DNA of 64,000 nt from an uncultured Planctomycetales bacterium (GTDB lineage: Bacteria > Omnitrophota > Gorgyraeia > Zapsychrales > JANLHA01). Of the stretch, positions 12,093 to 30,613 are shown in pieces (within the stretch, counting starts at the first letter, position 1; each line of letters begins with the position of its first letter). A program made the translations under genes and the position numbers. Under the pieces are notes generated by a model. It worked only from the letters and a program-made list of their open reading frames with translations. It was not told the origin of the DNA and searched no databases. The DNA lies in NCBI GenBank assembly GCA_964374105.1, contig CAYJXI010000007.1, forward strand, positions 13,096 to 77,095, written 5' to 3'.

Positions 12093-13169
12093 ATGAAACC
12101 CAAAACTCCTAAGCTATATAAAAGTGCCTCCCTCAAGGCGGGCCTTCCTCCCGGAACACTGGTTCACATCGGTGAGAAGAAATTAGCGAAAACTGTCATT
12201 AGTGTTTTTGAATACGATCAAGATCAATATCGAGAAAGGCAAGTACAAACAATTGAAGAAAGCTTTCCGGTCAAGGATCGGACCAGCGTTACGTGGGTCA
12301 ATATTGACGGACTTGAACAAATTGATGTCATCGAAAAGATAGATGCGCATTTCGGAATTCATCCGTTGGTGTTAGAGGACATCGTCAGTACCGAACAGCT
12401 ACCCAAACTGGAGGATTACGAAGACTATCTTTTTGTCGTTTTAAAGATGTTTTATCTGGATGATAGAAAGAAAGAAATTAAAATTGAACAAATCAGCATT
12501 ATCCTCGGCCTCAATTATGTGATTTCTTTCCAAGAAACACCAGGGGATATTTTTGATCCCATTCGGGAAAGGATAAGAAATGATAAAGGCCGCATTAGAA
12601 AAATGGGAGCCGATTATCTGGCCTATTGTTTGCTGGATTCGATTGTTGATCATTATTTTATTGTCTTTGAGCACCTGGGAGGGATCCTGGATCATCTTGA
12701 GGAACAACTGCTGAAAAACCCATCGGTGGCGATGGCCCAAGAACTGCATTACCTTAAACGCGAAATGATTTATTTACGGAGATACATCTGGCCGGTCAGA
12801 GAGTTAGTCACCGGGCTTTTAAGGACTGAATCAAAGTTGATCAAGAAAACCACAAATATTTATTTACGCGATTTGTACGATCATTCCATCCAGGTTATGA
12901 ATTCCATTGATTCCTACCGAGATCTCTTGGCAGGGATGCACGATATTTATCTCTCTAGCCTCAGCCAAAAGATCAATGAGGTCATGAAGGTCTTAACGAT
13001 TATCTCCGCCGTTTTTAGTCCCATTACCTTTATTGTTGGCGTTTACGGAATGAACTTTAAATACATGCCGGAATTAGAGTATCCATGGGGGTATTTTATT
13101 GTCTTAGGTGTGATGTGGTTGATCAGTTTATCGATGTTGATGTATTTCAAGATAAAGAAGTGGTTGTAA
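12093..13169 (+). CDS. corA: Magnesium/cobalt transporter CorA
   Basis: 358 aa with the C-terminal YGMNFKYMPE (GMN motif) followed by a TM2 acidic end. Typical CorA architecture. Confidence 0.9.
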   Translation: MKPKTPKLYKSASLKAGLPPGTLVHIGEKKLAKTVISVFEYDQDQYRERQVQTIEESFPVKDRTSVTWVNIDGLEQIDVIEKIDAHFGIHPLVLEDIVSTEQLPKLEDYEDYLFVVLKMFYLDDRKKEIKIEQISIILGLNYVISFQETPGDIFDPIRERIRNDKGRIRKMGADYLAYCLLDSIVDHYFIVFEHLGGILDHLEEQLLKNPSVAMAQELHYLKREMIYLRRYIWPVRELVTGLLRTESKLIKKTTNIYLRDLYDHSIQVMNSIDSYRDLLAGMHDIYLSSLSQKINEVMKVLTIISAVFSPITFIVGVYGMNFKYMPELEYPWGYFIVLGVMWLISLSMLMYFKIKKWL

Positions 13170-13775: not shown

Positions 13776-16700
13776 GTGATGTTCCAAACAAAAGTTTCTA
13801 GATTGTTTTTGAAGGTCACAGCCCTTCTTGTTATTTTCTCAATGGTTGTGACATCGAATCTTTTATTTCTGGGAGAAAGGGCCTATGCCCAAGTCATTAA
13901 CCTAGGATCCAGTGGGCTTACTCTTCCCTCTCCCGGCAGTCTTGTCTCGTTGAGTGCTGGGTTTCAACCGGTTGTCCTGAAAGGTATTAAAGTATATCCG
14001 CAGAATCCATTCCATTTTGACTTTATTGTTGATACCGGCGACAGCAAACTTAAAGAAGACCAGTTAAAGCAGGAGTCGACCAGACTGATTAAATATTTTC
14101 TGGCCTCCTTGACTGTTCCAGAAGATCAGATGTGGGTGAATTTATCCCCTTATGAAAAGGAACGGATCATCCCGGAAAGCTTTGGTGTCACCGAGATGGG
14201 ACGGGATATGTTACTGCAGGATTATCTCTTAAAGCAGTTAACTGCCTCGTTGATTTACCCGGAGCATGATTTGGGGAAGGCCTTTTGGGAGAAGATCTAT
14301 CAGAAGGCCTATGAGCAGTACGGGACAACAAATATTCCGGTCAATACCTTCAACAAGGTGTGGATTCTACCAGAGCGGGCAGTTGTCTATGAACACGAAG
14401 GGATGGCCTTTGTGGGGGAATCCCGCTTGAAGGTGATGCTGGATCATGATTATCAGGCTTTAAGAAGTCAACTGCTAAAGGATCAAGGTGCCACGGATCC
14501 CTCGCTTAAGGCTAAGGAGGTTAATGATCTTTCCGGCTCAATAGTCAAGGATTTGATCGTTCCGGCGATTGAAAAAGAGGTCAACGAAGGGGAAAACTTT
14601 GCCAATTTGCGGCAGATCTATCATTCGCTAATTTTGGCGGCTTGGTATAAGCGGACTTTGAAGGAGAGTCTTCTAGGTCAACAGTATGTTGATCAAAATA
14701 AGGTCAAAGGCATTGACCTTGAAGATAAAGAGATCAAGCAAAAGATCTATGAGCAATATCTTAAGGTGTTTAAGAAAGGGGTTTACAACTATATCCGGGA
14801 GGATTACGATCCCTACACCCAAGAATCCATCCCTCGCAAGTATTTCTCAGGAGGGATTGAGTGGAAGATCAATGAAGATTTACAAGTCACTAATGTGAGG
14901 GAAAAGAAAACATTCACAAGGCTCTTTCAAGGAGTTGTGGCGGGTGTGGTCATGCTGGCGAGTGTGGCCTTAAGAAGTCCTGCCTATGCTCAAGACAATA
15001 CCATATCACCTCTTCCCCAACCTCCAGCCCCTGGCCTATTAGAAAATGAGGAAAAGCCTATCGAAAAAGAAGCCCCCAATCAAGGTGTGGTCATTAAAAA
15101 CTTGGACTCAATCGCTAAAGAAGGCCCTCTTGATGAGAAAGATTTTAAAGATGGCTTTGACTTGAGGGATGCTTTAAACGCTATCTATCAATCGGATGAA
15201 GCTGATGAGTTTAAACAGAAGGTTGTCTCAGCCAAAATATTTTCAAGGCTTTTTAATGTTTATTATGAAAATCTGATGGATGAGAAGAAGGCTGATCGTT
15301 TAAAAGTGCGTGCAGTTCACTTAGCTGAAATTGTTGGTACTATTTTAAGGCATCAGCAAAATGAGATTGAAGAAGAAATTCTTGAGAACGATATTATCGG
15401 GAAAATTCGCAATATTTATCACGCGGAGGTTGTCAATCGCAAACTGCTCTTTGAGTTAGCAAGAACCGGCCCTTCTTCTCATGAGGAGGGTTCCTCCCTG
15501 AAACAACCCAATCGAAGCTATTTCAATTGGGTGTGGCAAGAAAAAATCCAGGAACATATTGATGAAGGAAGGTTCCCCAATATTCAACAAAAGTTTGGCC
15601 CGCAAGTACCATCTTTAAGAGATCAAATGAGATTTTATAATGGAGGGGCATTTGAGCTGACCAAGGCCGTTGTTAAATTAGGCCAATCAAAAAATCAAAG
15701 AGTAATAAAGGAGATCAAAAAGGCGGGATTAATCAAATCCCTTTTTCATTACGCAACCCTTCCTTCTCCTGTTAATGGTTATGTCTCTGCCACTACCGAG
15801 ACCATGTTGGGTCTAGCCGAAATCATCGAAGCCCAGCCAGGGTTTTTCTTAGAAGAACTCAATGAGATCGATGAGGTCCTTGGCCAGAGCATAGTAGATT
15901 TTATCAAAGACAACCTTGGGAAAGAACACGCTGCCCCTTATCAAAGATTAACAGATTCTAAAGCATCACCAAGTTATGAAAAAGCCTTTAGAAAGATTAA
16001 AGAAGCTACCACAGATGCAACCTCATTCATTGATGAGGCGGATTTCTCGATAAAAGTTTCCCAAGAAGTCTTAGAAACTTTAAGAAAGACATCCAGTGGG
16101 CAAGATGAGAACGGTTATTTTCTTTTTGTGAATAAAGGAACTGGTGTCATTGAGAAAGTAACGAATAGGTATGTTCATTCAAACAGGACGAATTTTTACG
16201 TTAACGAAGGTTTTCTTCATTACGCCAATGAGCTTGCCAAAAAACATGGGTATCTTTTGATCGGAGATTTTCATGCCCATCCGGATACCTTTATTAACCT
16301 TAAAGAGATGCCAGAAGAAGGATTCAAAGATGATGGCAGGGCCTATGATTTGTTAAGTCGGGGAGATTCCGTTTCGGGTCAGGTAAGGACTAAGCAACTG
16401 AATTTTTTGGGTGTGGGTTTCGATGGGAACTTTGAGGTTTTAGTCTATTTGCCCCTTTTTGAAAAAACACTGGGTGTGGGGCATGCTTATCTTAAGAGAA
16501 AAGATGAATTTCTAGACAAAGGTGTTTTTCCGGCTAGATCGCGGGTCATCAAAAATAGAAGTCAAGAGCTCGTGAGATTAAAATTAAAGGTCGTTGATTC
16601 AACAGTTCCGAGTGACCTAGATATCTTGGATCAATATCCCCCTTTCATCAAACAGAGTAAAAAGGAATTGAATTCTCAAGAATATGGTGATCTCATTTAT

Positions 16701-19700
16701 AACCTTAAAAAGATTGGCCTTGCTAACATGACGATTACATCCGCTGGATTAAAGATAAAGGGACTCGAGGCAAGGTTACAAGCCTTACGCGATCGACTAC
16801 AGACAGAGGATGTTAAAAAAGAAATAGAGAACTTACAAGAAGAAATCCAAAAATTAAGAAAAGTCTCTTATGAAAAAGACCATGATCATTTTGATTTTGT
16901 AGGAGAAAAGGATCCGGGAGTCATTATTTTTGTGGAAAGACAAGATGGAATCTTTGTCATCAGCGGTTCGGTTAATGACATCGATGATTTCCAATTGTGG
17001 TACAAGGAACACGATGGTTCTATTGCTACTTTGCTATTTCGGGTTGGGACAAACTTATATACAGCACACGAGAAAGATGCAACGGAAGTTGCCAGATTTT
17101 TACAATCATGGATAAAAATGCATAAAGCAGGGATAGGGGAGGGTATCTTGCAAAAGGTATCAGCAATAGAGAATCTCCCTCGTCAAGTCGGTGCTTTGTT
17201 GCGGGAGAATCAGGTGGAGGAATTGGATAATTTTGTCTCGGAAGAATACCTTAAGTTCATCAATACTAATCAAACATTGCTTGAGGAGTTTACCAGGGGA
17301 GTCTTGGATCGGGGTGTTTCGATTGAAACATGGGAACTTCTTCAAAAGAAAGGTGGCCCGTGGGGAAAAATTGCTAATAGTGTCTTAAAGAAATTGGGTG
17401 GGGAGGCAGAAATTCTCAAGAAGACAAAGCAGATCATTGATGATGGCATCAAGGAAAAGCGAACTCCTCAAGAATTAAGGCAGAAACTTACGGAGCTTAT
17501 AAAATATAGCAGTATCTACCGAGATATGATCTCTGGAGGAGTGACTCGATTGATTGAAAAAAGAAAGGTTGAAAATGATTTTGCGTTGAGATTGTTTGTG
17601 GTTTATGTGGCTAAATATACCTATGTTTATCTTTTAGATCAGCTAGGTCTGAGGGGTGAGGAGTTTGATAACTTTTTAGAAGAGTTTTTAGACTCAACCA
17701 CCCCTTATTATGAGGATAAACTGATTTGGGATGGGACAATTGATTATAAAGAAGGACATATCAAACCAAATTTAAATGCCAAGATCCGCGGGATCGAATG
17801 GATATTTGATATAGTCATCCACGAAGCGATCCATAAGATTGTTGCCGCCGATTGGATGCGGGAATATTTAAGATTAAATTTTGGTGATGACATGCGTTGG
17901 CTGTTGGCTACAGCGTTGGGGAGATTCAATGCCGGCATTATGGAAGGGACATTTCTTGAAGCGGGATTTCAACCTCCCTTTGGAAAGGAGACTTTTGTGG
18001 ATCGCCAAAGAACACCCTTCTTAACCCATGCAAAATTTCGTCTTATCCCTGATACGATTAGAACATGGGATGAAGTTGTCAAATATATCGAAGAGAATAA
18101 AGGGGGAAAAACCTGGGGTGATGAGCCAGGCAAATCCTATATCGAAGGAGATCTCTTAGCGGTATACTCAGCCTATCATTATGGTAAGGGGGGGGGTCTT
18201 CTTATCAGACTTTACGGAACCCGATTCAAGGAATTGAATTTTGCTCAGATGGAGTTGGCGGCAGCGGTTCTAAGGAATATCTTAAAGGGTCATGAGGTAG
18301 AAGGGTCGTTTTTTGATTTGGAAGAGAAAATCATCGTTGAGGTAAGAAAATTAGATTTGAGAGATGATACGACCTACGAGACCTTAGAGGAAAAAGAAAA
18401 GGGACTGACCGAATCTTTAATAAAAGAGTTGAAAGAAGCCGGTCAAATTAAAGAAGTCAAAAAGACTTCCCAAAATATCCGTGATCGAGAGGAGACTAAA
18501 AAAGATCAGGCGATTCTGACGGATGGCTTAAATGCCCAAGGGATTGCTCAACTTGACTATGGAGCGATTGTCTCGGCTATCAAAAAAGCAGAAGAACAGC
18601 ATGTCAGTCCCCTTGATTTGGCTCGTGAGCTTTTCCAAAAAAACAATATATCATTGGATGAACAAAATCAATTAACTCTTTATACCTTCCTTGTCGTTCT
18701 TGATGCCTTAAGGAGAATCGGGATAGTTTATGAAAATCTTCAGCCCCCCACTTTGGTGGGGATGATGAGGGTGCTTCTCCCTCATTTAAAGAGCTTGGAT
18801 CCTCAAAACAAAGATCCTTTGGGGACCATCAGAAAAATTGAGGAAGGTATTAATGATAGAAATTCAAAGATCTTTCAAGAGTTTATTGAGCATATCCTTG
18901 ATGTTAAGGATTTAATCTCCCCCACGACCGGACGAAGCCGATATCCTGACCAGACCTTTTTCTTGCAAGAATTTGCCCTGCCGCGGTTGATTGCCTTTAA
19001 AAAGATGAGGAATGACCGGGTGATCCGAATCGGGAGTCTGGGTTCATCCACTGGAGAAGACTTAATGAAATTGGCTGAGACGGTTTCGATAGTCTTCCAT
19101 CAGACTGGGGAAAACTTAAACGATTGGAAAATCATTTTGGAAGCGCGGGATGTCTCAGCTAAGTCCCTCAATGTGTTTAGAGAAACAGCGCAAGCGGAAT
19201 TGACTCATCCTGTTTTTCAGATTGAAACAAAAGTGACGATTCTGGGGGATAAGGAAGATCTCAAGGAGATTTCCAATCTTTCCTATGACATCTTAGCGGT
19301 TCGAGCAGTTGGGGAATATTTAAGGCCGCAGATAAGGACACAATTAGGAGATGCTCTTCATTCCACTTTGCTTCTTTCCGATCGTCATATCATCCCCAAC
19401 AATGAATCTTATCTCTCTTTCGCTGAAGTGGGACCTTTTCAGAATGTGCACCAATCCCGAAAAGGGGATTTCCCTCTGATTCAACTTAAGCCTCAAGAAC
19501 AAGAAAAAATCAAAGAATATCAAATCAAGAAAATGATTCCTCTGATCCAATTGGAACTTAAAGAGGCCATCCCGCGTATCTTTGCAGAGGAAGGGCAGAT
19601 CAGAGAGCTCATTGAAACGTTAGCACAAGAAACAAAGGAATCTTCAGATACCATTTTCAAGTTCATTATGGATTCTGCCCGTCATGTCGATTTGGAAGAT

Positions 19701-22700
19701 GAAGAAAGAATCAAGGCCTTACTCTTTGATGAAACGAAAGCAGAAGAGACAGGGACTTTTGCTGAATTTAAAGAGAGGGTTATGAAAGGATGGGATAAAA
19801 GGAAGAAATCCCCTCAGGGGGAGGAAGGCATTAAGAAAGATGAGGCAATCCTGACAAGTTTAGAAAAATTGGAACAAGATTTTTTAGACGGGACTCTGTT
19901 ACAAGAAGGAATTGCTCGAATCAATCAAGAGCATCCAGAGTTAAATATTAGAAAATCTTCCGACATTTCCAAACTTAATAGCAAAGTCGCTAATTTCGAT
20001 ATTGCCTTTTTACCTTTACTGACCAAAATCCCTCAGGCGGTTTTGACCGATCAAGATTGGGGGATTTATCGACTGACTAAAGAAGGAATTGAATTGAGAA
20101 GTGGGGATGGGATTCAGAAAGAATTGATTCCCTTTACGAAAGAGGCTCAAGCGCTTATCGCTAAACTCCTAGAGAAGTATGAGGAGGTTTACTTCGACCA
20201 AAGAATTAATGCAACAACGAAATCCTATGTTGTCCACCCCTTTTATTACGATCAAGGAGATATGTCAATCGCCATTTCTTTGATTAGACGGGGTATTGAT
20301 TTGGTAAGTCAAACAATTGATATAGATCATGAAGAACACCGCAGGGTTTTATTTACCGATGAAGAATGGGACATGAATATTCATCAAGATCGACCTATGC
20401 CGGTGCAGTTTACCTTAATCATCTTAGGTCTTTTGGAAAGATTGCCAGCGATTTTAAGACCGGGGGTCACAAGAGAGGATTGGTACTGGGTCCCACGCGA
20501 GAGTGGTATTGAATTTGTCAATAAAGTGACGGGTGAACATGAATGGGTCAATTTTACTCCCGATGAAACGGTTTTGAATTTACCAGAAACTCAAAAGATC
20601 AGGCACATCTTTGAGATTTTAAGGTTATTACCTTCGCATCATGCCATGAATGACTTGGATCAGAAGTTGTTAAAAAATGAACAAGGGTTATTAACGATGT
20701 ATGATCAATTGCGATTAGCTATCCAAAGAAATTTTGATGATCATGTTCCTTTAGCCTACGATCAATATGAAATTTTAGCCGGCCTAAAAAATCGAGGGAA
20801 GGTCCTAGAGCAAGAAGCGATCAACAGCCGATTCACGTTAAGAGAATTACAACTTATCTATGCAATGTTGTCCTCCTTACCTAGAGAAATTGTTGATCAA
20901 TACCAAGATCAATTCTTTTCTTTTCGGCCTCGGGAATTAAGAAATTTTACACAATCTTATCCAGAAGATGGGCATGCCTCTTTGGTGATTGCACCTTTAA
21001 ATATGCGGGAGGTATGGATGTTTTGGGATATCATTCGAAGTAAAGAAATCCGTGGCTATTTAGGTCAATTCACGAAAGAGAAAATCATTGAACTTTCTTT
21101 TATCCGGATGCTTTTGCACGAGCTAGCCCACCGGGTCTATAAAAATCTTGATACAAAACTTCAACGTGCTTATGGTGGGATTTCCTGGGATATGAAGTCT
21201 TGGACTGGACAGGAAGCCACGAAAAAAAGGAACCAGGGGAGGCGTTTCTTGGGAAAACATTTCCTCATTGATTATGCCTTCCCTGAGGAAGATAATTCGC
21301 AAGAAGATTTTGTGGATCAGTTCTCGGCTTATATTTTATTTGGTCCCCAGTTTCGAAGGGCAGCCGAACGTTCCGCCGCCATCAAGGCCAAATATAATTT
21401 TTTTAAGAATATATTCAAAGGGAATGAGTACGAAAGGAATTTTGATTATCATGCTAAAGTCCCTCAGATCGATCAGGCAATGATCACACAGGATGAACTG
21501 AAACAAAAGCAGGCTAAAGTGGATCAGATGTTAGAGCAGGTGCGTGCCTTGCGGGAGGGGCCTCACACATCCCTTAATCTTAAAAAGACCGCTGAGGATT
21601 TTGAAAAAGTTTATCCGCGATTGTTAGAATTTTCCGATCACCTCATTCAGCGTTATCAAGAGATAGCGAATCGATACAGATTAAACCCAGGTGAGATAAG
21701 ACTTTATATGGTTGGTGGACGTGTGAGGGGAACGCCACTTAAAGAAGATAGTGATATTGATTTGATTTTTGCAGTGGAGAATCCGGGAAGTTCATTGGGA
21801 AGAATTCCGTTTGAGCGATTTTCCGATCCATTAGAAGCATGGGATTTTAAATTAGATCGGATGAAGGAATTGTTGGCTGATGTATCCAAGATTTCAAATC
21901 AGTTAGGTGTTAGGAACCTTTTTCATATTTTAAGTCTTGATGTAAAGATTCCTGAGGATGATTTGATTGTAACCCAAGAGAGACTTTTATTAGCAAAATC
22001 GAAGGGACAAACGACTGCCTTTCCCGCAACGACGACAACCCCTCAACGAGATGAGGCGATGGTGACGCCAGATCGTCAGCCCCAGCAGATCTTGATGGAA
22101 AGGATGGGCTTTGCCAGTGCTATGCTGGAATTGAAATTGAATATTCATGGTTTGGAGATGGAGAATCTCTTTCAACATTATGAGAAAGAACATGACGCTT
22201 ACATCTTAGACGATAAAGTCATGGATGTGATGGGACAACTGGGTGGGATGAAAAATGGGGAGGCTCTTAATTTGGTTGGTTTTGTTTTTATCCGCGGGAG
22301 CACGGTAGAAAAACTTAAAACAGCTGATAAGGAGGCATTCCTCTCTTTAAGGCATGAACAGAGGCACAATGATTATCATGCCATTCACGGCTATGCCATT
22401 GAATCCAGCGAACAAAAACTCATTGATGAATTGTATGCTTACTTTGCCTCATTTATCCAAATCTACGGGGTGGAAGGCCTCACAACAATCCAAGAACGAC
22501 AGATCGGCACAGGCCCCTGGGCCCAGATTGTTCTCAATGTCCTCATTCAGGATTATTTGAAGGATGAGCGTGAGGAGGCACTTAAAGCAGATCTCATTGA
22601 ACGGCTTCGCTATGTGGCCAGTATCTTAGATTGGTATTTAAAAACTCAAGATCCCAATATGATCTTGGAATTTTTAAAAACAGCCACCTCATTGAATCAA

Positions 22701-23801
22701 ATCTTGGCAATGGTGAATTTTGATTATCTCAAAGACAATTTGAAAGAAAAGATTCCTTTAGAAGAATATGAGCGGCTTGCTGGCCAATTTAGAAAATTTA
22801 GAAGTGATTTCCAAACAATGAAATCAAAAGAGGGTGGCCGTGCTTCTCAATTTGAGGCAAATCCCCAACGCGACCAGGCGATGGTGACAAAACCAGGAGA
22901 ACCATTGATCCCTCCTTTATGGGAAGGGCAGATTCGGTATGTTCCGGAAGCGATGGTCAAGAAGGGAGGCTGGAAACTCCATTTGCGGGTTCAACCGCAT
23001 GGAAGATTCGCAGAGATTATCCACAAGTGGCTGTGGAGGAATACAAAAAAAGGAGAGGTCGGTTATAAATATTTACATGGGGGAGACAAGGGAGAAAAAG
23101 ATTTTACAATTTATGTAGGACCTAAAAAAGATGCTGATCAACTGGCCATCAAAATTTCCCAAGAGATTGGGTATCTCTTAAGGAATCCAGGAGAACATAT
23201 TCTCGAAACAGACATCGAATTCGCTCCCAAAGTCTGGGGCCGGTTCGATGTGAAGGATATTGAAGGGAATCAATACTTCTATGGGATGGTAAGGGCGGGT
23301 GTTGAAGGAACAGGGATTCCCATCTTGAAGAAAGATTGGCATGAGAGGTTTAGATTATTGTTTAATTATGGGAAGCCCCGCTCACCACAACAAGAGAAAG
23401 CCGACCACAAGAAACTGCGCCAATCAGAACCATTGTTTATCCAAAGAGCGTTTGATCTCTTGAAAAATGAGTTGGGAGACTATTTTACAGGCGGGGCAGA
23501 AAATGTCGAAGGGCTTTCTCCTAAAGGAGAGAGACCTTTGGAACAAGAGGGGAAAAGTAAAGATGAAGCTATGATCACAAAGCCTGTTGGTGGGATTGAC
23601 TTTGCACCTGGGAATTTGATTTTGGATATAAAGAGAGATGCTAACGGGGCGCCACTTCCTTTGCCAGTTCAGCAGATGCAGCAGATCAAAATTGATGGAC
23701 TTGTGCCGGTGATTATTCAGATCACACCGGTGACGAATTTCCCACTTCTTTTTGGCCTGTCGGAACAAGGGACCGAAGAACAGCTTTCCTTAAAGGATTG
23801 A
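13776..23801 (+). CDS. Giant (3341 aa) secreted/membrane-anchored multidomain protein of unknown function
   Basis: Uninterrupted 10,026-nt ORF with an N-terminal hydrophobic signal/anchor (...FLGERAYAQ). Internal motifs include HEAIH, HELAH and an NTase signature GGRVRGTPLKEDSDIDLIFAVEN. Confidence 0.8.
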   Translation: MMFQTKVSRLFLKVTALLVIFSMVVTSNLLFLGERAYAQVINLGSSGLTLPSPGSLVSLSAGFQPVVLKGIKVYPQNPFHFDFIVDTGDSKLKEDQLKQESTRLIKYFLASLTVPEDQMWVNLSPYEKERIIPESFGVTEMGRDMLLQDYLLKQLTASLIYPEHDLGKAFWEKIYQKAYEQYGTTNIPVNTFNKVWILPERAVVYEHEGMAFVGESRLKVMLDHDYQALRSQLLKDQGATDPSLKAKEVNDLSGSIVKDLIVPAIEKEVNEGENFANLRQIYHSLILAAWYKRTLKESLLGQQYVDQNKVKGIDLEDKEIKQKIYEQYLKVFKKGVYNYIREDYDPYTQESIPRKYFSGGIEWKINEDLQVTNVREKKTFTRLFQGVVAGVVMLASVALRSPAYAQDNTISPLPQPPAPGLLENEEKPIEKEAPNQGVVIKNLDSIAKEGPLDEKDFKDGFDLRDALNAIYQSDEADEFKQKVVSAKIFSRLFNVYYENLMDEKKADRLKVRAVHLAEIVGTILRHQQNEIEEEILENDIIGKIRNIYHAEVVNRKLLFELARTGPSSHEEGSSLKQPNRSYFNWVWQEKIQEHIDEGRFPNIQQKFGPQVPSLRDQMRFYNGGAFELTKAVVKLGQSKNQRVIKEIKKAGLIKSLFHYATLPSPVNGYVSATTETMLGLAEIIEAQPGFFLEELNEIDEVLGQSIVDFIKDNLGKEHAAPYQRLTDSKASPSYEKAFRKIKEATTDATSFIDEADFSIKVSQEVLETLRKTSSGQDENGYFLFVNKGTGVIEKVTNRYVHSNRTNFYVNEGFLHYANELAKKHGYLLIGDFHAHPDTFINLKEMPEEGFKDDGRAYDLLSRGDSVSGQVRTKQLNFLGVGFDGNFEVLVYLPLFEKTLGVGHAYLKRKDEFLDKGVFPARSRVIKNRSQELVRLKLKVVDSTVPSDLDILDQYPPFIKQSKKELNSQEYGDLIYNLKKIGLANMTITSAGLKIKGLEARLQALRDRLQTEDVKKEIENLQEEIQKLRKVSYEKDHDHFDFVGEKDPGVIIFVERQDGIFVISGSVNDIDDFQLWYKEHDGSIATLLFRVGTNLYTAHEKDATEVARFLQSWIKMHKAGIGEGILQKVSAIENLPRQVGALLRENQVEELDNFVSEEYLKFINTNQTLLEEFTRGVLDRGVSIETWELLQKKGGPWGKIANSVLKKLGGEAEILKKTKQIIDDGIKEKRTPQELRQKLTELIKYSSIYRDMISGGVTRLIEKRKVENDFALRLFVVYVAKYTYVYLLDQLGLRGEEFDNFLEEFLDSTTPYYEDKLIWDGTIDYKEGHIKPNLNAKIRGIEWIFDIVIHEAIHKIVAADWMREYLRLNFGDDMRWLLATALGRFNAGIMEGTFLEAGFQPPFGKETFVDRQRTPFLTHAKFRLIPDTIRTWDEVVKYIEENKGGKTWGDEPGKSYIEGDLLAVYSAYHYGKGGGLLIRLYGTRFKELNFAQMELAAAVLRNILKGHEVEGSFFDLEEKIIVEVRKLDLRDDTTYETLEEKEKGLTESLIKELKEAGQIKEVKKTSQNIRDREETKKDQAILTDGLNAQGIAQLDYGAIVSAIKKAEEQHVSPLDLARELFQKNNISLDEQNQLTLYTFLVVLDALRRIGIVYENLQPPTLVGMMRVLLPHLKSLDPQNKDPLGTIRKIEEGINDRNSKIFQEFIEHILDVKDLISPTTGRSRYPDQTFFLQEFALPRLIAFKKMRNDRVIRIGSLGSSTGEDLMKLAETVSIVFHQTGENLNDWKIILEARDVSAKSLNVFRETAQAELTHPVFQIETKVTILGDKEDLKEISNLSYDILAVRAVGEYLRPQIRTQLGDALHSTLLLSDRHIIPNNESYLSFAEVGPFQNVHQSRKGDFPLIQLKPQEQEKIKEYQIKKMIPLIQLELKEAIPRIFAEEGQIRELIETLAQETKESSDTIFKFIMDSARHVDLEDEERIKALLFDETKAEETGTFAEFKERVMKGWDKRKKSPQGEEGIKKDEAILTSLEKLEQDFLDGTLLQEGIARINQEHPELNIRKSSDISKLNSKVANFDIAFLPLLTKIPQAVLTDQDWGIYRLTKEGIELRSGDGIQKELIPFTKEAQALIAKLLEKYEEVYFDQRINATTKSYVVHPFYYDQGDMSIAISLIRRGIDLVSQTIDIDHEEHRRVLFTDEEWDMNIHQDRPMPVQFTLIILGLLERLPAILRPGVTREDWYWVPRESGIEFVNKVTGEHEWVNFTPDETVLNLPETQKIRHIFEILRLLPSHHAMNDLDQKLLKNEQGLLTMYDQLRLAIQRNFDDHVPLAYDQYEILAGLKNRGKVLEQEAINSRFTLRELQLIYAMLSSLPREIVDQYQDQFFSFRPRELRNFTQSYPEDGHASLVIAPLNMREVWMFWDIIRSKEIRGYLGQFTKEKIIELSFIRMLLHELAHRVYKNLDTKLQRAYGGISWDMKSWTGQEATKKRNQGRRFLGKHFLIDYAFPEEDNSQEDFVDQFSAYILFGPQFRRAAERSAAIKAKYNFFKNIFKGNEYERNFDYHAKVPQIDQAMITQDELKQKQAKVDQMLEQVRALREGPHTSLNLKKTAEDFEKVYPRLLEFSDHLIQRYQEIANRYRLNPGEIRLYMVGGRVRGTPLKEDSDIDLIFAVENPGSSLGRIPFERFSDPLEAWDFKLDRMKELLADVSKISNQLGVRNLFHILSLDVKIPEDDLIVTQERLLLAKSKGQTTAFPATTTTPQRDEAMVTPDRQPQQILMERMGFASAMLELKLNIHGLEMENLFQHYEKEHDAYILDDKVMDVMGQLGGMKNGEALNLVGFVFIRGSTVEKLKTADKEAFLSLRHEQRHNDYHAIHGYAIESSEQKLIDELYAYFASFIQIYGVEGLTTIQERQIGTGPWAQIVLNVLIQDYLKDEREEALKADLIERLRYVASILDWYLKTQDPNMILEFLKTATSLNQILAMVNFDYLKDNLKEKIPLEEYERLAGQFRKFRSDFQTMKSKEGGRASQFEANPQRDQAMVTKPGEPLIPPLWEGQIRYVPEAMVKKGGWKLHLRVQPHGRFAEIIHKWLWRNTKKGEVGYKYLHGGDKGEKDFTIYVGPKKDADQLAIKISQEIGYLLRNPGEHILETDIEFAPKVWGRFDVKDIEGNQYFYGMVRAGVEGTGIPILKKDWHERFRLLFNYGKPRSPQQEKADHKKLRQSEPLFIQRAFDLLKNELGDYFTGGAENVEGLSPKGERPLEQEGKSKDEAMITKPVGGIDFAPGNLILDIKRDANGAPLPLPVQQMQQIKIDGLVPVIIQITPVTNFPLLFGLSEQGTEEQLSLKD

Positions 23802-24540: not shown

Positions 24541-24656
24541 TCCGCCTTAAAGATAATCATTCTTATTTTTCTTCATTATTTCATACAAACTTTGTCTCAA
24601 AGTTGTTACAATTGACTTGTTGTAAATTCTTTTTAAGGAGAAGACAAGGAGAGAAA

Positions 24657-25922
24657 ATGAAAAAATTGGGGTTAGTATCATTGATTTTGATTCCCATGAT
24701 TTTTCCTGGGCAGATTGCGGCTGAGGAGGCCTTGCCTTCGAACCTGTCGGATTTGATTGAACAGGCCGTTAAAAATAATCCCTCGATTAAGGCGCAATAT
24801 AGCCAATGGCAGGCCGCCAAAAACCGTGTCCCGCAGGCTTCGAGTTTACCCGATCCTATGGGTGGCTACGCGGTCATGGGGCCGATGCTGGAGACGCGGT
24901 TAGGTCCCCAGAAAGATATGTACGAATTTGAACAAATGATTCCCTTTCCTGGGAAACTCTTTGAGCGAAGAAAAATGGCGGAAGCCCAGGCCCGGATGGC
25001 TGAGGCCAAATACAAAATGACCGAGCAAGAGGTGATCTTGAGGGTCAAAGAGGTCTATTACGATCTTTTTTCCGTGGAGGCCTCTTTAAGGATTTTAGAG
25101 GAAATCCGAGATTTAATGAGGAACTTTGAATCGATTGCCCAAGCGAGGTATGCCAGTCAGTCCGCAGGTCAGGGGGAGGTGGCCAAGGCCCAGGCCGAAG
25201 TTTCCGAGGCGTTAAAACAGATTTTTACGCTTCGCCAACAGAAAGAAACTCTGGTAAGCCTGATGAATTCTCTTCTTAATCGCGATCATTCCACTCCTTG
25301 GGAAGGACTCATAACCGAACCCACCTTGCCGCCCTTGGATCTCAATCTCGAAGAATTACTCACCGAGGCTAGAAACAATCGTCCCGAACTGAAAGAAGCA
25401 TTGGCTATGCAAAAAAGAGAAGAGCACGGCAAGTCTTTAGCCAAGTATGAATATGCCCCGGATCTGACGGTGGGTTTCCAATATTTTCGTATTGGAGAAC
25501 GTGAAACCAATGAGGCCGATGATGGTCGGGATGCCTGGATGATTCCCATTAAATTTACTATCCCTTTGTGGCAGAATCGAATTGTCCCCACCATCGCGGA
25601 GGCCAAAAACAATTTAAAAGCCAGTGAAGCACGCTTTAGGGAAGTTAGCAATGAAACCGAATATGAAATCAAGCGTGCTTTTTTTCAATTTACAAATCAG
25701 AAACAAATTGTGGAGCTCTATCGGAATGCCTTTATCCCGCAGGCCGAGTTAGCTTTTCGCTCGGATCAAGCGGGGTATGAATCGGGGTCAACCGATATTT
25801 TACAACTGATTGACAGCGAAAGGGTTTATCTTAATGCAAAAATGTCTTATTATCAGACATTAGCTGAGGTCATGAAGAGTTTTGCAGTTATCGAAAGAAT
25901 TGTGGGAAAAGAATTGAAATAA
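24657..25922 (+). CDS. TolC-like outer membrane efflux protein (CusC/OMF family)
   Basis: Signal peptide, then two OEP-type repeats (LSDLIEQAVKNNPSIKA... and LEELLTEARNNRPELKEALA...). The ATG at 24657 follows aaggagag. Confidence 0.8.
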   Translation: MKKLGLVSLILIPMIFPGQIAAEEALPSNLSDLIEQAVKNNPSIKAQYSQWQAAKNRVPQASSLPDPMGGYAVMGPMLETRLGPQKDMYEFEQMIPFPGKLFERRKMAEAQARMAEAKYKMTEQEVILRVKEVYYDLFSVEASLRILEEIRDLMRNFESIAQARYASQSAGQGEVAKAQAEVSEALKQIFTLRQQKETLVSLMNSLLNRDHSTPWEGLITEPTLPPLDLNLEELLTEARNNRPELKEALAMQKREEHGKSLAKYEYAPDLTVGFQYFRIGERETNEADDGRDAWMIPIKFTIPLWQNRIVPTIAEAKNNLKASEARFREVSNETEYEIKRAFFQFTNQKQIVELYRNAFIPQAELAFRSDQAGYESGSTDILQLIDSERVYLNAKMSYYQTLAEVMKSFAVIERIVGKELK

Positions 25923-25938
25923 GAAGGGAGTAAGCATC

Positions 25939-27357
25939 ATGTCACGAAATAAATTTGTGGTCCTACTCATAATCATTCTTATGATCACGGGAGTGATTCT
26001 CACCATCAAAGGAGGGAATCTTCCCCGCTCTCAAAATAAAAAGGAAAAGGCGGTTTACTATTGTCCTATGCACCCAACTTACATCAGTGATAAGCCCGGG
26101 GATTGCCCTATCTGTTATATGAAGTTAGTCAAGAAAGAAGATTCCAATCCCGTGCCAGCAAAAGAACAAATGGTGCAAAGGATGAAAGACATTTGCATCA
26201 TGCACAATTGTCCTAAAAAACATGAGGGTAAAATTTGTCCGATGTTGATGGTGACCGAAGAAGGTGAAAAGGTTACCTGTCCTATTTGCGGGATGCATGT
26301 GGTGGGAGAAACGGCCGCACTTAAAGAGAAAAGAATTTTGTATTGGACGGACCCCATGATCTCGGGATATAAATCAGAAAAACCGGGGAAATCACCCATG
26401 GGAATGGATTTGATTCCTGTTTATGAAGAAGAGGGTGTAACTCAATCCCAAGGATCAACTCCTGAAGGTTATGCCTCAGTTGTTCTTTCTACTCAAAAGC
26501 AGCAATTGATCGGTATCAAAACGGCAAAGATCGAGAAAAAAAGGCTCAACAAAACAATTCGAACAGTTGGTACCATTGCCCATGACCCAGAACTTTATCA
26601 AGCCCAATCGGAATATATTCAAGCGATTAAGGCTTACCAACAGGCGCAAGCAAGTTCTATCCCAGAAATTGTTGACCAATCCAAACGCCTGCTGGAATCC
26701 ACTCGAATTCGTTTGAAACATCTAGGCCTCAGTGATGATCTGATTGAAGAAATCGCCACATGGAAAGAGCCGGAGCACAGCCTGCTTTTTGCCCATCCGG
26801 GAGATCCAGTATGGATGTATGCCCAAATCTACGAATTTGAACTGCCCCTGATTAAAGTTGGGCAGGAAGTTGATGCGGGAATCCCTTCTCTTCCCGGTGA
26901 AGTTTTTAAAGGGAAAATACGTGCGATTGATCGAATGGTTGAACCAACGACAAGAACGACCCGAATTCGGGTCTTAATAGAAGATCTTAAAGGGCACCTT
27001 AAACCGGATATGTATGTCAATGTCACGCTCAACATTGATCTGGGGGAAACTCTCACCGTTCCGGTTGAGGCGGTTTTTAATACCGGCACACGACAGATTG
27101 TTTTTCTTGATGAAGGTCAGGGGATCTTTACTCCCCGCGATGTTGTCTTAGGAACAAAGACAGAAAATGATTATGAGGTTAAAGAGGGTCTTAAAGAACA
27201 GGAAAGTGTCGTTGTCAGCGGCAACTTCTTGATTGATTCCGAAAGCCGTCTTAAATCGGCCATTGAGGGAATGATTTCTGAAAAAGGAAGTCCTAAAGGC
27301 AGCCCAATGGCTGAAGAGCCATCCTCAACGACAGGAGGCAATCGCCATGGACAATAG
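25939..27357 (+). CDS. Efflux RND periplasmic adaptor (CusB-like) with N-terminal tandem metal-binding motifs
   Basis: N-terminus carries YYCPMHPTYISDKPGDCPICYMKLV (heavy-metal-binding domain), two further Cys-rich copies, and a degenerate copy YWTDPMISGYKSEKPGKSPMGMDLIPV. This is followed by the membrane-fusion-protein body (HlyD-like beta-barrel/lipoyl regions). Confidence 0.8.
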   Translation: MSRNKFVVLLIIILMITGVILTIKGGNLPRSQNKKEKAVYYCPMHPTYISDKPGDCPICYMKLVKKEDSNPVPAKEQMVQRMKDICIMHNCPKKHEGKICPMLMVTEEGEKVTCPICGMHVVGETAALKEKRILYWTDPMISGYKSEKPGKSPMGMDLIPVYEEEGVTQSQGSTPEGYASVVLSTQKQQLIGIKTAKIEKKRLNKTIRTVGTIAHDPELYQAQSEYIQAIKAYQQAQASSIPEIVDQSKRLLESTRIRLKHLGLSDDLIEEIATWKEPEHSLLFAHPGDPVWMYAQIYEFELPLIKVGQEVDAGIPSLPGEVFKGKIRAIDRMVEPTTRTTRIRVLIEDLKGHLKPDMYVNVTLNIDLGETLTVPVEAVFNTGTRQIVFLDEGQGIFTPRDVVLGTKTENDYEVKEGLKEQESVVVSGNFLIDSESRLKSAIEGMISEKGSPKGSPMAEEPSSTTGGNRHGQ

Positions 27358-30300
27358 TCTTAAAAAATCCAATCCATCTCCCATTGAAGAAACAGGGGGG
27401 GAGCGGGAAAATAATGATGGCATTATTGAAAAGGTGATTGACTTCTCGGCCCGCAACAAGTTTATCATTTTCATTCTCATCATTGCCGCTATGATGGCCG
27501 GGTATGTCTCTTTAATAAATATCCCTTTGGATGCGATTCCTGATCTTTCTGACACTCAGGTCATTATTTACTCTCGGTGGGATCGTAGTCCCGATATCAT
27601 TGAGGACCAAGTGACTTACCCGATTGTGACAGCGATGCTGGGGGCGCCTCAAGTCAAGGCGATCCGCGGATTTTCGGATTTCGGATTTTCTTATGTTTAT
27701 GTCATCTTTAAGGATGGAACTGATGTTTACTGGGCGCGCAGTCGCACCTTGGAATACTTAAGTAAGATCATCCCGCGTTTGCCCGAAGGGGTTAGAACCG
27801 AATTGGGACCGGATGCCTCCGGGGTGGGGTGGGTCTATCAGTATGCCTTGGTGGATAAATCTGGGCAGCATAGCCTGCAAGAGTTAAGAAGCTTTCAAGA
27901 TTGGTACCTGCGTTATCATCTGCAGAGTGTTCCGGGAGTCGCGGAGGTTGCTTCTCTAGGAGGGTTTGTCAAACAGTATCAAATCACAATTGATCCTAAT
28001 AAACTCCTTGCGTACAACATATCTCTCCCTAGGGTTATTGAGGCCGTCCGCAAAGGGAATCAGGAGGTGGGAGGCAGACTCCTGGAATTTTCCGGGGCCG
28101 AGTATATGGTTCGGGGGCGTGGTTATGCAAAGTCCATCAAGGATTTGGAAGACATTGTGGTAGAGACCAAGGAGAAGGGAACGCCTATTTTGGTTAAAAA
28201 TTTGGGCAATGTGGCCTTGGGGCCGGAAATCCGTCGGGGATTGGCGGATCTGGATGGAGAAGGAGATGTGGTGACCGGAACTGTGGTGATGCGTTATGGA
28301 GAAAATGCCCTCAATGTCATCAACAGGGTCAAAACGAAACTCAAAGAGATTGAACCCTCTCTTCCTAAGGGCGTGGAAGTGGTCAGCCTTTATGATCGTT
28401 CGGAACTCATCAAACGTTCCATTGATACATTAAAGGAAAAACTCCTTGAGGAAATGATTACCGTGAGTTTGGTCATTCTTCTTTTCCTCTGGCATTTAAG
28501 GAGTGCCCTGATTCCGATTTTTACCTTACCGATTGCGGTTCTGATTTCTTTTATACCAATGTATTCGATGAAATTGACCTCCAATATCATGTCTTTGGGG
28601 GGTATCGCTATTGCCATTGGAGCGATGGTGGATGCCTCGATTGTCCTCATTGAAAATGCCCACAAACGCATTGAACGTTGGAAAGAGGAAGGCCGAAGAG
28701 AACCTTATAATGAAGTTTTGATTTCAGCGGCCAAGGAAGTAGGCCGTCCGATCTTTTTTTCTCTGCTAGTGATTGCGGTGTCATTTATTCCGATCTTCAG
28801 TCTGGAGGCCCAGGAGGGGCGGCTTTTTAAACCCCTCGCCTTCACCAAGAATTATGCGATGGCCTTTGCCGCTCTTTTGTCGGTCACGTTAGCACCCGCC
28901 TTGATGCTTTTATTAATTCGGGAGACAAAGTTTACCTTTAAACCCCGCTGGCTCAGTTCCCTTCTAACCTTCTTTGCCGGTGGAGAAATTCATGCCGAGG
29001 AAAAACATCCCGTCAGCCGTATCTTATTTCATCTTTATGAACCGATTGTCAAATGGGTGGTGGATTACCGTCAAGGTGTGATTGGCTTGGCTGTCATCTT
29101 GGTTCTTCTGACCGTGCCGGTTTACTTCTGGATTGGCCAAGAATTCATGCCGCAGCTGAATGAAGGATCTCTCCTCTATATGCCCACCACTTTACCCGGG
29201 ATTTCTGTTACTGAGGCCCAGCGTTTACTGCAGACTCAGGATAAAATCCTTAAAGGATTTGAAGAAGTCGAAAGAGTCTTCGGAAAGGCGGGACGAATAG
29301 AAAGCTCAACAGATCCTGCCCCCTTTTCAATGATGGAAACCGTGGTGACCTTAAAACCGCAGAACCAATGGTCACGCAAAATCTCTTATGAAGAACTGAT
29401 CTCCCAAATGGATGAGGTTTTAAGGATCCCCGGTTCCACCAATGCCTGGACCATGCCGATCAAGAATCGGATTGATATGCTCACAACGGGAGTAAGGACT
29501 CCTATTGGAATTAAGATATTCGGAGATGATCTTAAAAAAATAGAAGGGATCGGGATTGAGCTTGAGGTGATTTTAAAAGGAATTCCTGGGACACGGAGTA
29601 TTTATGCCGAACGGGTTGCCGGCGGATATTTTCTTGATTTCGATTTGAAACGCGGGGAATTAGCCCGTTACGGGCTAACCGTGGAAGACGCCCAGATGAT
29701 TATTATGACTGCTATCGGAGGAGAAAATATCACCACAACAATCGAAGGCCGGGAACGGTATCCGGTGAATATCCGTTATCCTCGGGAATTACGTGATGAT
29801 GTCGAGAAACTCAAACGGGTTTTGGTCCCCACTCCTTTGGGACAACATATTCCCTTGGTTCAAATCGCTGACATCGTTTTACGTTCAGGGCCGGCGATGG
29901 TCCGCAATGAGAATGGGTTACTGGCTGGTTACGTTTATGTGGATATGACCGGACGCGACCTGGGGGGTTACGTCAAGGAAGCCAAACGGATTGTCCGCGG
30001 AAAATTAAAGCTTCCCACCGGTTATGCCATTGTCTGGAGTGGTCAGTATGAAAATATGGCAAGGGTCATGCAACGGTTGGTAGTGGTCCTTCCCATGACC
30101 TTATTTATCATTTTCTTTTTGCTATACGTCAATACTAAATCCTTAGTCAAAACTTTTATTGTTTTGTTGGCTGTTCCTTTTTCTCTGATTGGGGCTTTAT
30201 GGCTCTTGTGGTTGTTGGGTTACAATATGTCGGTTGCGGTTTGGGTGGGGTTGATTGCCTTAGCCGGAGTGGATGCCGAGACAGGGGTCATTATGCTTTT

Positions 30301-30613
30301 GTATCTTGATTTGGCCTATGAGGAAGCAAGACGCAAAGGCACGATGAAAACTTTTGAACAATTGAAAGAAGCGATCATTCACGGGGCCGTGAAACGAATC
30401 CGTCCCAAAATGATGACGGTGGGGACAACGTTTATGGGACTCTTGCCTATTATGTGGGCCGCCAGTTGGGAAACCGGCGCCGATGTGACGAAACGCATCG
30501 CCGCTCCCATGGTGGGGGGCATCTTCACGTCCTTTATTATGGAATTATTGGTTTATCCGGCGATTTATGCGGTCTGGAAATGGAATTTTGAAATGAAGAA
30601 AGGTAACCGCTAA
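27347..30613 (+). CDS. cusA: Heavy-metal efflux RND transporter, CusA/CzcA family
   Basis: 1088 aa with 12 TM segments and two large periplasmic loops. Conserved HME-RND blocks are present (e.g. GIAIAIGAMVDASIVLIEN, AVWVGLIALAGVDAETGVIM). It overlaps the adaptor gene by 11 nt. Confidence 0.9.
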   Translation: MDNSLKKSNPSPIEETGGERENNDGIIEKVIDFSARNKFIIFILIIAAMMAGYVSLINIPLDAIPDLSDTQVIIYSRWDRSPDIIEDQVTYPIVTAMLGAPQVKAIRGFSDFGFSYVYVIFKDGTDVYWARSRTLEYLSKIIPRLPEGVRTELGPDASGVGWVYQYALVDKSGQHSLQELRSFQDWYLRYHLQSVPGVAEVASLGGFVKQYQITIDPNKLLAYNISLPRVIEAVRKGNQEVGGRLLEFSGAEYMVRGRGYAKSIKDLEDIVVETKEKGTPILVKNLGNVALGPEIRRGLADLDGEGDVVTGTVVMRYGENALNVINRVKTKLKEIEPSLPKGVEVVSLYDRSELIKRSIDTLKEKLLEEMITVSLVILLFLWHLRSALIPIFTLPIAVLISFIPMYSMKLTSNIMSLGGIAIAIGAMVDASIVLIENAHKRIERWKEEGRREPYNEVLISAAKEVGRPIFFSLLVIAVSFIPIFSLEAQEGRLFKPLAFTKNYAMAFAALLSVTLAPALMLLLIRETKFTFKPRWLSSLLTFFAGGEIHAEEKHPVSRILFHLYEPIVKWVVDYRQGVIGLAVILVLLTVPVYFWIGQEFMPQLNEGSLLYMPTTLPGISVTEAQRLLQTQDKILKGFEEVERVFGKAGRIESSTDPAPFSMMETVVTLKPQNQWSRKISYEELISQMDEVLRIPGSTNAWTMPIKNRIDMLTTGVRTPIGIKIFGDDLKKIEGIGIELEVILKGIPGTRSIYAERVAGGYFLDFDLKRGELARYGLTVEDAQMIIMTAIGGENITTTIEGRERYPVNIRYPRELRDDVEKLKRVLVPTPLGQHIPLVQIADIVLRSGPAMVRNENGLLAGYVYVDMTGRDLGGYVKEAKRIVRGKLKLPTGYAIVWSGQYENMARVMQRLVVVLPMTLFIIFFLLYVNTKSLVKTFIVLLAVPFSLIGALWLLWLLGYNMSVAVWVGLIALAGVDAETGVIMLLYLDLAYEEARRKGTMKTFEQLKEAIIHGAVKRIRPKMMTVGTTFMGLLPIMWAASWETGADVTKRIAAPMVGGIFTSFIMELLVYPAIYAVWKWNFEMKKGNR

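Follow-up and report, generated by a model that had tools for sequence, protein, structure and literature searches.

The 64,000-nucleotide (nt) stretch analysed here (the window) comes from an uncultured Planctomycetales bacterium placed by GTDB in the Omnitrophota (GCA_964374105.1, contig CAYJXI010000007.1, positions 13,096 to 77,095). It contains a giant open reading frame (ORF) for a 3,341-aa multi-module protein, and the peptide MVGGRVRGTPLKEDSDIDLIFAVEN in this protein is most likely the catalytic core of a nucleotidyltransferase (NTase)-fold domain of the minimal type, which spans ~170 aa and forms an autonomous module. By the Pfam criterion, the predicted domain belongs to the minimal nucleotidyltransferases (MNTs) of the Pol-beta superfamily, where it forms a separate small clade of known fold and chemistry. 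The predicted fold is well supported when profile, family and model are taken together, and it is this profile, family and fold evidence that gives the NTase call its significance.

Identification of the nucleotidyltransferase module

The first-pass annotation of the window had read a Pol-beta superfamily NTase signature from the letters and had proposed a Pfam search of the region and a structural model as checks. The module was excised as aa 2566-2758, cut between the two junction motifs that flank it, and compared with profile libraries. The excised module passed the threshold of PF01909 NTP_transf_2 (E 1.6e-5, 25.6 bits versus a gathering cut-off of 21). Together with an AlphaFold2 (AF2) model in NTase order and the conservation of GG, S-D-x-D and E2668, this match bears out the superfamily assignment. 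The weaker matches in Pfam, NCBIfam and PADLOC were only to other NTase-fold families, namely GlnE, archaeal CCA-adding enzyme, GlnD and 'Cyclase'. Membership of the GlnE family was rejected because PF03710 GlnE scored below its threshold (14.3 bits versus a cut-off of 24); the NCBIfam GlnE and GlnD matches were also far below cut-off. A CD-NTase or oligonucleotide cyclase was rejected as well, since the PADLOC 'Cyclase' match was partial (module residues 67-117, profile positions 25-72 of 261, E 4.6e-4) and lacked the C-terminal helical domain. A single-sequence search of the PDB with the module returned only coiled-coil noise from its N-terminal helices.

The same annotation had described the peptide as a fit to G[GS]-x(9-13)-D-x-[DE] with a further acidic residue downstream. 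This pattern is present once in the protein, and E2668 is the downstream acidic residue. The peptide itself was located correctly, although the interval given for it started 1 nt late and ran 8 nt beyond its end (positions in Table 1). Taken alone, the bare pattern has no evidential weight for an NTase. About one match is expected by chance in a protein of such length, so that the pattern is uninformative: 1 match was observed versus 1.06 expected in composition-preserving shuffles (P>=1 = 0.63). A stricter MNT-like pattern, hhG[GS]xx[RKQ][GDN]x4-7[ST]DhDhh, gave 0 occurrences in 2,000 shuffles.

The AF2 model of the module, built from a 10-sequence alignment, reached a predicted local distance difference test score (pLDDT) of 84.8 and a predicted template modelling score (pTM) of 0.81, and displayed the strand and helix order of a minimal NTase. 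The elements, in module residues, are H7-28, H35-68, E76-81, E96-102, H120-144, E151-159 and E171-177; that is, two long N-terminal helices (~70 residues) precede a b1-GG loop-b2(DxD)-helix-b3-b4 core. E76-81 is the LYMVGG strand and E96-102 the DIDLIFA strand, with a short loop between them. M-V-G-G (aa 2645-2648) ends strand 1, and S-D-I-D-L (aa 2659-2663) lies on strand 2. The pLDDT was low after module residue ~178, where a Thr/Pro-rich linker starts. In a Foldseek search against the PDB, 11 of the 14 best matches were NTases: 2rff, the MNT of HEPN-MNT (8xeh_E/8xeo), GlnE (3k7d/1v4a), MntA (7bxo/6m6u), 7ae9_G, AAD(9), DrrA and AadA. The viral structure library gave nothing significant with Foldseek.

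Conservation of the active site in a small clade

A word-indexed search found nine homologues of the module, all free-standing and 170-194 aa long. An exhaustive profile search then gave 126 cluster representatives at E<=1e-3 among 1.84 billion proteins, with ~100 being free-standing (160-220 aa, typically ~180 aa) and ~19 located inside proteins of 517-3,803 aa, the giant protein among them. The free-standing homologues cover the same ~170 residues as the module. Because the profile retrieves these representatives and does not retrieve the large general MNT family, the clade appears to be small and separate. The diverged relatives are at 20-45% sequence identity, and 29 of 48 relatives matched PF01909 independently (E<=0.01), while others matched GlnE, Polbeta and ANT(2'').

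Conservation was counted across about 125 clade members (Table 1). GG, R, S/T and DxD were conserved in at least 94% of them, showing that conservation of the predicted metal- and nucleoside triphosphate (NTP)-binding residues is strong throughout this small and distinct clade.

One of these residues differs between assemblies. Over 13,542 aligned nt, the sole difference between the window and the Logan contig ERR3478686_3684059 (L014), an independent assembly, changes GAT to GGT and replaces D2660, the first Asp of the DxD motif, by Gly. A third assembly differs only by G598V. The chance of a single difference hitting one of the ~6 near-invariant catalytic codons is ~1 in 1,000, a post hoc figure with n=1. 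Either an assembly error or a genuine allele with loss of function could lie behind D2660G.

Free-standing relatives were found in Patescibacteria, in Micrarchaeota-like archaea (a Micrarchaeaceae archaeon) and in other genomes, and the NTase is carried within very long ORFs on two contigs of Omnitrophota metagenome-assembled genomes (MAGs; L005 and L006). Patescibacteria, Micrarchaeaceae and Omnitrophota are generally regarded as small-celled, host-dependent lineages. Gene contexts of free-standing homologues were read on the contig of P0008, on L010 (5001-5534), L008 (5001-5585), L001 and L003. One homologue belongs to a ribosomal-protein operon, where map and infA flank it, another lies upstream of infC-rpmI-rplT, and the archaeal one adjoins scpA-scpB. 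On L001 (10001-10552) NUDIX comes first, followed by a 100-aa ORF, by the NTase and by a 183-aa ORF that overlaps the NTase stop and resembles a MOSC domain by eye; in Patescibacteria, L003 (NTase 9911-10423) again has an ORF of NUDIX size (168 aa) in the place of NUDIX. The housekeeping positions of the free-standing homologues hint at a core cellular role in small-genome lineages.

Fusion has recurred in the clade: about 15% of its members lie within large Omnitrophota proteins which share the N-terminal domain (N-domain) of the giant protein, and some of which also share its C-terminal GGID(L/F) domain. A distant NTase-bearing subgroup (P0102, P0108 and P0123; 955-2,729 aa) shows '...PEGGIRLG...' directly after the NTase core, within Pro/Ala/Glu-rich surroundings.

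Junction motifs and modules of the giant protein

The NTase module is bounded by a short recurrent motif. D[EQ]A[MI][ILV]T occurs 6 times in the giant protein versus 0.0016 expected, and nowhere else in the six frames of the window; the copies start at aa 1577, 2022, 2566, 2759, 3033 and 3263. They end low-complexity linkers rich in Pro, Thr, Gln and Lys, and divide the C-terminal 1,765 residues into modules. The synonymous codon positions of the copies vary, so that the peptide is what selection acts on. A role of the motif as internal translation start or ribosome-binding site was rejected, because 2 of the 6 copies have Ile in place of Met, synonymous sites vary, and the SSP[ILVM] motif of a sister subfamily contains no Met.

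Equivalent motifs were found in relatives. [DE]xAM is present 6 times in P0051 (0.32 expected) and 7 times in P0045/L005 (0.36 expected), and in both P0051 and P0045 one copy immediately precedes the NTase module and another the GGIDL domain. In the second subfamily SSP[ILVM] takes this place, with 7 copies each in P0125 (0.16 expected) and P0096/L006 (0.13 expected); one copy precedes the NTase in both proteins, and another precedes GGIDM in P0125. Since the boundaries of the NTase module coincide with the recurrent motif, the junction motifs are candidates for sites at which the giant protein is processed or recognised.

The ~70-aa GGID C-terminal domain, 'GGID(L/F)...G(L/F)VPVI..I.P...LP..LG(L)', is shared with Omnitrophota P0045/L005 and P0051. 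Beyond these, at least 24 more proteins carry it; most are short ORFs from short metagenome contigs, and xAM occurs within 25 residues upstream of the domain in 10 of 23. No Pfam or NCBIfam model covers it, and nothing relevant was found in the literature. The giant protein, with its signal-like segment and N-domain and with a GGID(L/F) domain after a junction motif, thus fits the Omnitrophota modular family defined here.

Outside the NTase, the 'GGWKLHL...GGD.GE.DFTIY.G' segment (aa 3059-3244, nt 22950-23507) showed 35% identity to the C-terminal part of P0010, a 485-aa metagenomic protein and the sole homologue from a search with aa 2759-3341; no known family matched this module. A 'DFHAHPD...SRGD' segment (aa ~830-875, about 16260-16400) is like the JAB/MPN HxH...SxxD motif with unusual spacing and no profile match.

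The RHEQRH peptide and the HExxH motifs

RHEQRH had been read as HEPN-like (R-x4-H), with the caveat that so short a match could be chance. The caveat was justified: Rx4H occurs 9 times in the giant protein versus 3.8 expected and is uninformative as a HEPN signature. The HEPN-like reading itself was not supported, as no profile matched, Rx4H often arises by chance, and HExxH is formed by these very residues. RHEQRH lies ~195 residues downstream of MVGGRVRGTPLKEDSDIDLIFAVEN, in a different module (aa 2759-3032). For that module, Pfam (E<=10), PADLOC, PHROGs, NCBIfam and PDB sequences gave neither a HEPN match nor any match above noise; no homologues were detected, and a single-sequence AF2 model was unusable (pLDDT 39.7).

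HExxH was observed 3 times in the giant protein versus 0.13 expected (Table 1), and of the three copies HELAH alone has any profile match, below cut-off. No paralogy between the HELAH and HEQRH modules was seen with BLAST, and sub-segment Pfam scans of the HEQRH, HEAIH, 'HAHPD' and WKLHL regions returned nothing. The junction-motif relatives P0051, P0045, P0125 and P0096 contain no HExxH; in-cis autoprocessing by a zincin was consequently rejected as a general mechanism.

N-terminus and genomic surroundings

Identity of 33-52% links the N-domain to the N-termini of P0051, P0134/P0111, P0026, P0125/P0135 and P0041, among which P0125/P0135 and P0026 are named Candidatus Omnitrophota at NCBI. With the Omnitrophota contigs L005 and L006, these relatives make it probable that the window belongs to an Omnitrophota bacterium or a near relative. 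These relatives have equivalent signal-like N-termini, and the N-domain relatives with NTase cargo show only that hydrophobic segment. Among the free-standing NTase relatives, 0 of 93 have a hydrophobic N-terminus. The giant protein carries a second hydrophobic segment (aa 381-405), which decides the side of the membrane for its ~2,900-aa cargo including the NTase.

The giant ORF is 10,026 nt long. An ATG at 13779 would give a 3,340-aa form, identical to the public protein P0011, which occurs in three assemblies; the locus was also found, through the neighbouring CorA gene, in NCBI assembly GCA_947085705.1. In the other frames over the NTase region, the overlapping ORFs are at most 71 aa. A recent foreign insertion of the module was rejected, because its GC content and its GC content at third codon positions are in line with the remainder of the gene.

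Upstream of the giant gene is a CorA Mg2+ transporter (12093-13169), and downstream (24603-30613) is a Cus-like heavy-metal efflux operon with an outer-membrane factor, a membrane-fusion protein with an HMBD metal-binding domain, and a resistance-nodulation-division pump (OEP/HlyD/AcrB). A histidine kinase is also among the neighbours. No functional link of the giant gene with the CorA and Cus-like neighbours was evident, and no secretion-system genes adjoin the giant gene, P0051 or P0125. An Rfam scan of the window gave no match, a PHROGs scan gave no match at E<0.1, and IMG/VR contained no relatives of the giant protein. A metagenome scan for relatives returned one locus, already known.

Table 1. 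Positions of the giant ORF, its modules and motifs, and the key NTase residues in the window, with counts of conservation in the clade
Feature	Residues (aa)	Position (nt)	Strand	Remarks
Giant ORF	1-3341	13776..23801	+	3,341 aa, GTG start; carries all modules
Signal-peptide-like N-terminus	1-39	13776..13892	+	Hydropathy peak aa 14-32; ends AYA-Q
Conserved N-terminal domain (~310 aa)	50-362	13923..14861	+	Shared with NTase-bearing Omnitrophota giants; ends ...RKYFSGG
Second hydrophobic segment	381-405	14916..14990	+	Also ends AYA-Q; absent from relatives
HEAIH	1349	17820-17834	+	HExxH motif
DQAILT junction	1577	18504..18521	+	
Module	1577-2021			Sub-threshold CheR-type methyltransferase match
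CheR-like region	1726-1802	18951-19181	+	20.7 bits versus cut-off 27; G-S-S-T-G-E-D resembles the CheR S-adenosylmethionine-binding signature
DEAILT junction	2022	19839..19856	+	
Module	2022-2565			HELAH and sub-threshold WLM match
HELAH	2448	21117-21131	+	HExxH motif; sub-threshold WLM (19.7 bits versus 26) and DUF4344 metallopeptidase-like match
DQAMIT junction	2566	21471..21488	+	Directly before the NTase module
Module	2566-2758			NTase
Predicted nucleotidyltransferase-fold domain	2575-2742	21498..22001	+	Family profile match, PF01909, AF2 model
Putative active-site core	2645-2669	21708-21782	+	MVGGRVRGTPLKEDSDIDLIFAVEN; contains conserved G-G, S-D-x-D, E
G2647	2647	21714-21719 (with G2648)		Conserved 126/128
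G2648	2648	21714-21719 (with G2647)		Gly 122/127; G/S 126/127
R2649	2649			Conserved 120/127
S2659	2659			S/T 122/124
D2660	2660	21753-21755		Conserved 123/125
Polymorphic base	2660	21754	+	A in window, G in Logan contig; GAT to GGT, D2660G
D2662	2662	21759-21761		Conserved 124/125
E2668	2668	21777-21779		E/D 97/121 (80%); end of strand b2
H2717	2717	21924..21926	+	Strand b3; His 44/59; invariant in 10 closest
D2722	2722			Strand b3; Gly in 49/56 relatives
DEAMVT junction	2759	22050..22067	+	Directly after the NTase module and its Thr/Pro-rich linker
Module	2759-3032			HEQRH
RHEQRH	2859-2864	22350..22367	+	In module aa 2759-3032; fits Rx4H and HExxH (HEQRH)
HEQRH	2860	22353-22367	+	HExxH motif, part of RHEQRH
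DQAMVT junction	3033	22872..22889	+	
Module	3033-3262			'GGWKLHL...DFTIY' domain
DEAMIT junction and C-terminal domain	3263	23562..23798	+	Motif 23562-23579
C-terminal module	3263-3341			79 aa; 'GGIDF...PVIIQITP...LFGL'

Discussion

Several observations weigh against reading the module as an active NTase among other enzymes. The Pfam scan of the whole 3,341-aa protein missed the PF01909 domain, and the family profile gave only E~0.1 matches to PDB sequences (OAS2, HI0073 and 2rff). The Foldseek matches were weak, with E values from 7e-3 to ~1 and TM-scores of 0.27/0.42 for the best match and 0.42 at maximum; these low scores are partly due to the long N-terminal helices. On b3, the third carboxylate of classical NTases is not conserved; the frequent-to-invariant His H2717 is found at or near its place, and an E/D stands at the end of b2. 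The D2660G allele may mean that the activity is dispensable or counter-selected in some cells. Finally, the other 'enzymatic' modules depend on sub-threshold matches (CheR 20.7 versus 27, WLM 19.7 versus 26) or on motifs alone.

These points were considered together with the alternatives to which they lend weight. That MVGGRVRGTPLKEDSDIDLIFAVEN is a chance motif, with no NTase domain around it, is hardly tenable. About one bare match is expected, and the whole-protein scan reported nothing at the site; the excised module nevertheless lies above the Pfam threshold, the motif is invariant in the homologous family, and the AF2 model is confident with NTase strand and helix order. An inactive remnant, in which the NTase fold is kept as a scaffold or binding module without catalysis, is improbable. 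It would account for the apparent absence of the third carboxylate from its classical position and for a D2660G allele in an otherwise identical gene, whereas the G-G, S-D-x-D and E/D residues are 80-99% conserved over ~125 relatives, a pattern typical of an active site, and the window allele retains all of them. An MNT-HEPN-like pair, with RHEQRH of the next module as the active site of a HEPN RNase, was also considered, because RHEQRH fits Rx4H and the NTase module has MNT antitoxins among its closest matches in structure. This reading is very unlikely, given that no HEPN match was found for aa 2759-3032 (Pfam, PADLOC and PDB sequences), that Rx4H occurs 9 times in the protein versus 3.8 expected by chance and the residues also spell HExxH, and that the next module has no detectable homologues. 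Moreover, a linker and a junction motif divide the NTase from the next module as they do other unrelated modules, and no HEPN neighbour was seen for the free-standing homologues whose contexts were read. A small two-gene MNT-HEPN operon encoding ~100-140-aa proteins was rejected, as the domain is inside a 10-kb gene and its relatives are 160-220-aa single genes in housekeeping contexts.

The place where the NTase would act is a separate matter, and roughly equal weight is given to a delivered effector and to a cytoplasmic enzyme. An extracellular effector role is plausible. According to this explanation, which refines the assignment of MVGGRVRGTPLKEDSDIDLIFAVEN to an NTase module and does not contradict it, the giant protein would be exported by way of its N-terminal signal and split into single enzymes at its D[EQ]A[MI][ILV]T junctions, and the freed NTase would AMPylate a host or prey target. 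We regard this as possible, though short of probable. The signal-peptide-like N-terminus, the N-domain relatives without a further hydrophobic segment, the six junction motifs with selection on the peptide, the enrichment of equivalent motifs in relatives before NTase modules and the GGID domain, and the enrichment of HExxH in the giant protein are all consistent with it. DrrA/SidM offers an analogue, and the NTases of polymorphic toxins and polyvalent proteins have been proposed to act alike. On the other hand, cleavage was not observed, some junction-motif relatives are without any HExxH, so that in-cis zincin processing is not general, the second hydrophobic segment would keep the NTase cytoplasmic if it is a stop-transfer anchor, no secretion-system genes are adjacent (giant gene, P0051 and P0125), the free-standing homologues look cytoplasmic or housekeeping, and IMG/VR holds no viral relatives. 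It is likewise possible, with no more confidence, that both hydrophobic segments fix the giant protein in the inner membrane and that aa 406-3341 stay in the cytoplasm, where the NTase would serve housekeeping or regulatory nucleotidylation, possibly linked to translation. NTPs are available only inside cells. A signal peptide (aa 14-32) followed by a stop-transfer segment (aa 381-405) would leave 2,900 C-terminal residues inside, and the non-hydrophobic N-termini of all 93 free-standing relatives, together with gene contexts of map/infA, infC-rpmI-rplT, scpAB and NUDIX, point the same way. However, the Lys/Arg residues before and the acidic residues after aa 381-405 favour an N-in/C-out, signal-peptide-like orientation, and in relatives with the same N-domain and NTase without the second segment, the NTase would be exported.

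The proposed mechanism starts from the preferred assignment of an NTase module. The module would be an active Mg2+-dependent enzyme that takes a nucleoside monophosphate, most likely AMP, from an NTP and places it on an acceptor hydroxyl. MNT, GlnE and DrrA-type enzymes suggest by analogy that this acceptor would most likely be a protein side chain. The NTase would work without a HEPN partner. The giant protein would carry several enzymatic payloads that act independently, and beside the NTase those proposed are a methyltransferase-like module resembling CheR, the 'GGWKLHL' module and as many as three HExxH modules. A bolder and rather doubtful extension is that such giants are chromosomal bacterial polyproteins of Omnitrophota, whose motif-started enzyme modules are cut apart, whose NTase nucleotidylates host or prey, and in which D2660G reflects selection on a costly or toxic activity. 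In such polyproteins the junction motif would be lineage-specific: one subfamily has [DE]xA[MI], and a second one SSP[ILVM].

Among known systems, the minimal NTases (MNT, PF01909; HI0073, MntA of MntA-HepT, and Sulfolobus 2rff) are the best profile and structure matches and share the same core, in which a hydrophobic strand closes with G-[GS] and a short loop leads to an S-D-x-D strand. MNT antitoxins AMPylate a protein partner (MntA-HepT; PDB entry titles 7bxo and 7ae9). The module differs from them in its length of ~170 aa with a conserved two-helix N-terminal extension of ~70 residues, in the absence of a fused or adjacent HEPN partner, in a third metal ligand apparently off the classical position, and in its location within a 3,341-aa protein. 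GlnE, GlnD and DrrA (SidM)-type enzymes likewise have an NTase core after helices and gave weak profile (GlnE, GlnD) and structural (GlnE, DrrA) matches, but all module matches were below the family thresholds and the module lacks the extra domains of GlnE and DrrA. DrrA is a precedent for an NTase-fold AMPylator as a delivered effector.

Polyvalent proteins are a further comparison. They carry a minimal NTase made up of four strands plus three helices, either solo or in very large multi-enzyme polypeptides with interspersed HExxH peptidases and methyltransferases, and the NTase is proposed to nucleotidylate protein; the Pol-beta NTases compared include the NTox45 domain of polymorphic toxins (Iyer et al. 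2017, PMC5512222). This mixture of minimal Pol-beta NTases and HExxH peptidases also fits the delivered-effector explanation. The polyvalent proteins with NTases belong to conjugative elements of Firmicutes, with ArdC-N fusion and a position beside type IV secretion system genes (PMC5512222). The giant protein resembles them in logic, as a likeness to the described organisation, and is not a member. Its candidate polyvalent-like content consists of the PF01909 NTase above threshold, the sub-threshold CheR and WLM matches and the 3 HExxH motifs. In contrast to polyvalent proteins, its gene is chromosomal, between corA and the cus-like efflux operon and with no phage or conjugation context, and the protein starts with a signal-peptide-like segment, ends in a GGID(L/F) domain and has no IMG/VR relatives. 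MARTX-type toxins also combine unrelated enzymatic modules in one very large chain, with short linkers that contain a recurring site. However, no RTX repeats, cysteine protease domain or type I secretion system partner were detected in the giant protein or its neighbourhood, the junction is [DE]xA[MI] and not Leu-(Ala/Ser/Gly), and cleavage of the giant protein is only inferred.

The published Omnitrophota giants were compared as well. For these, an architecture of signal peptide plus transmembrane segments is common (West-Roberts et al. 2023, bioRxiv 10.1101/2023.11.21.568195; Nielsen & Lui 2026, bioRxiv 10.64898/2026.06.07.730766). Cleavage into several products has been proposed, which agrees with an exported and processed giant protein, and the cleavage points were stated to be unknown (bioRxiv 10.1101/2023.11.21.568195; 10.64898/2026.06.07.730766). 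Nucleotidyltransferase domains, linkers and junction motifs have 0 mentions in these two preprints. The N-domain, NTase and C-terminal relatives of the giant protein come from Omnitrophota MAGs, but at 3.3 kaa it is far below the >=10 kaa class of those studies.

The predicted NTase is one of very few parts of an otherwise unannotatable large Omnitrophota protein with an assignable chemistry. Its fold being a known one, the junction motifs that delimit the modules and the difference at the catalytic D2660 are the less usual features. The junction motifs provide concrete, testable candidate sites in a protein class for which cleavage has been proposed and the cleavage points have not been located. 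The same module is free-standing in Patescibacteria and a Micrarchaeaceae archaeon and fused in Omnitrophota. If the module is truly a delivered AMPylator, it would give a handle on host manipulation by these organisms.

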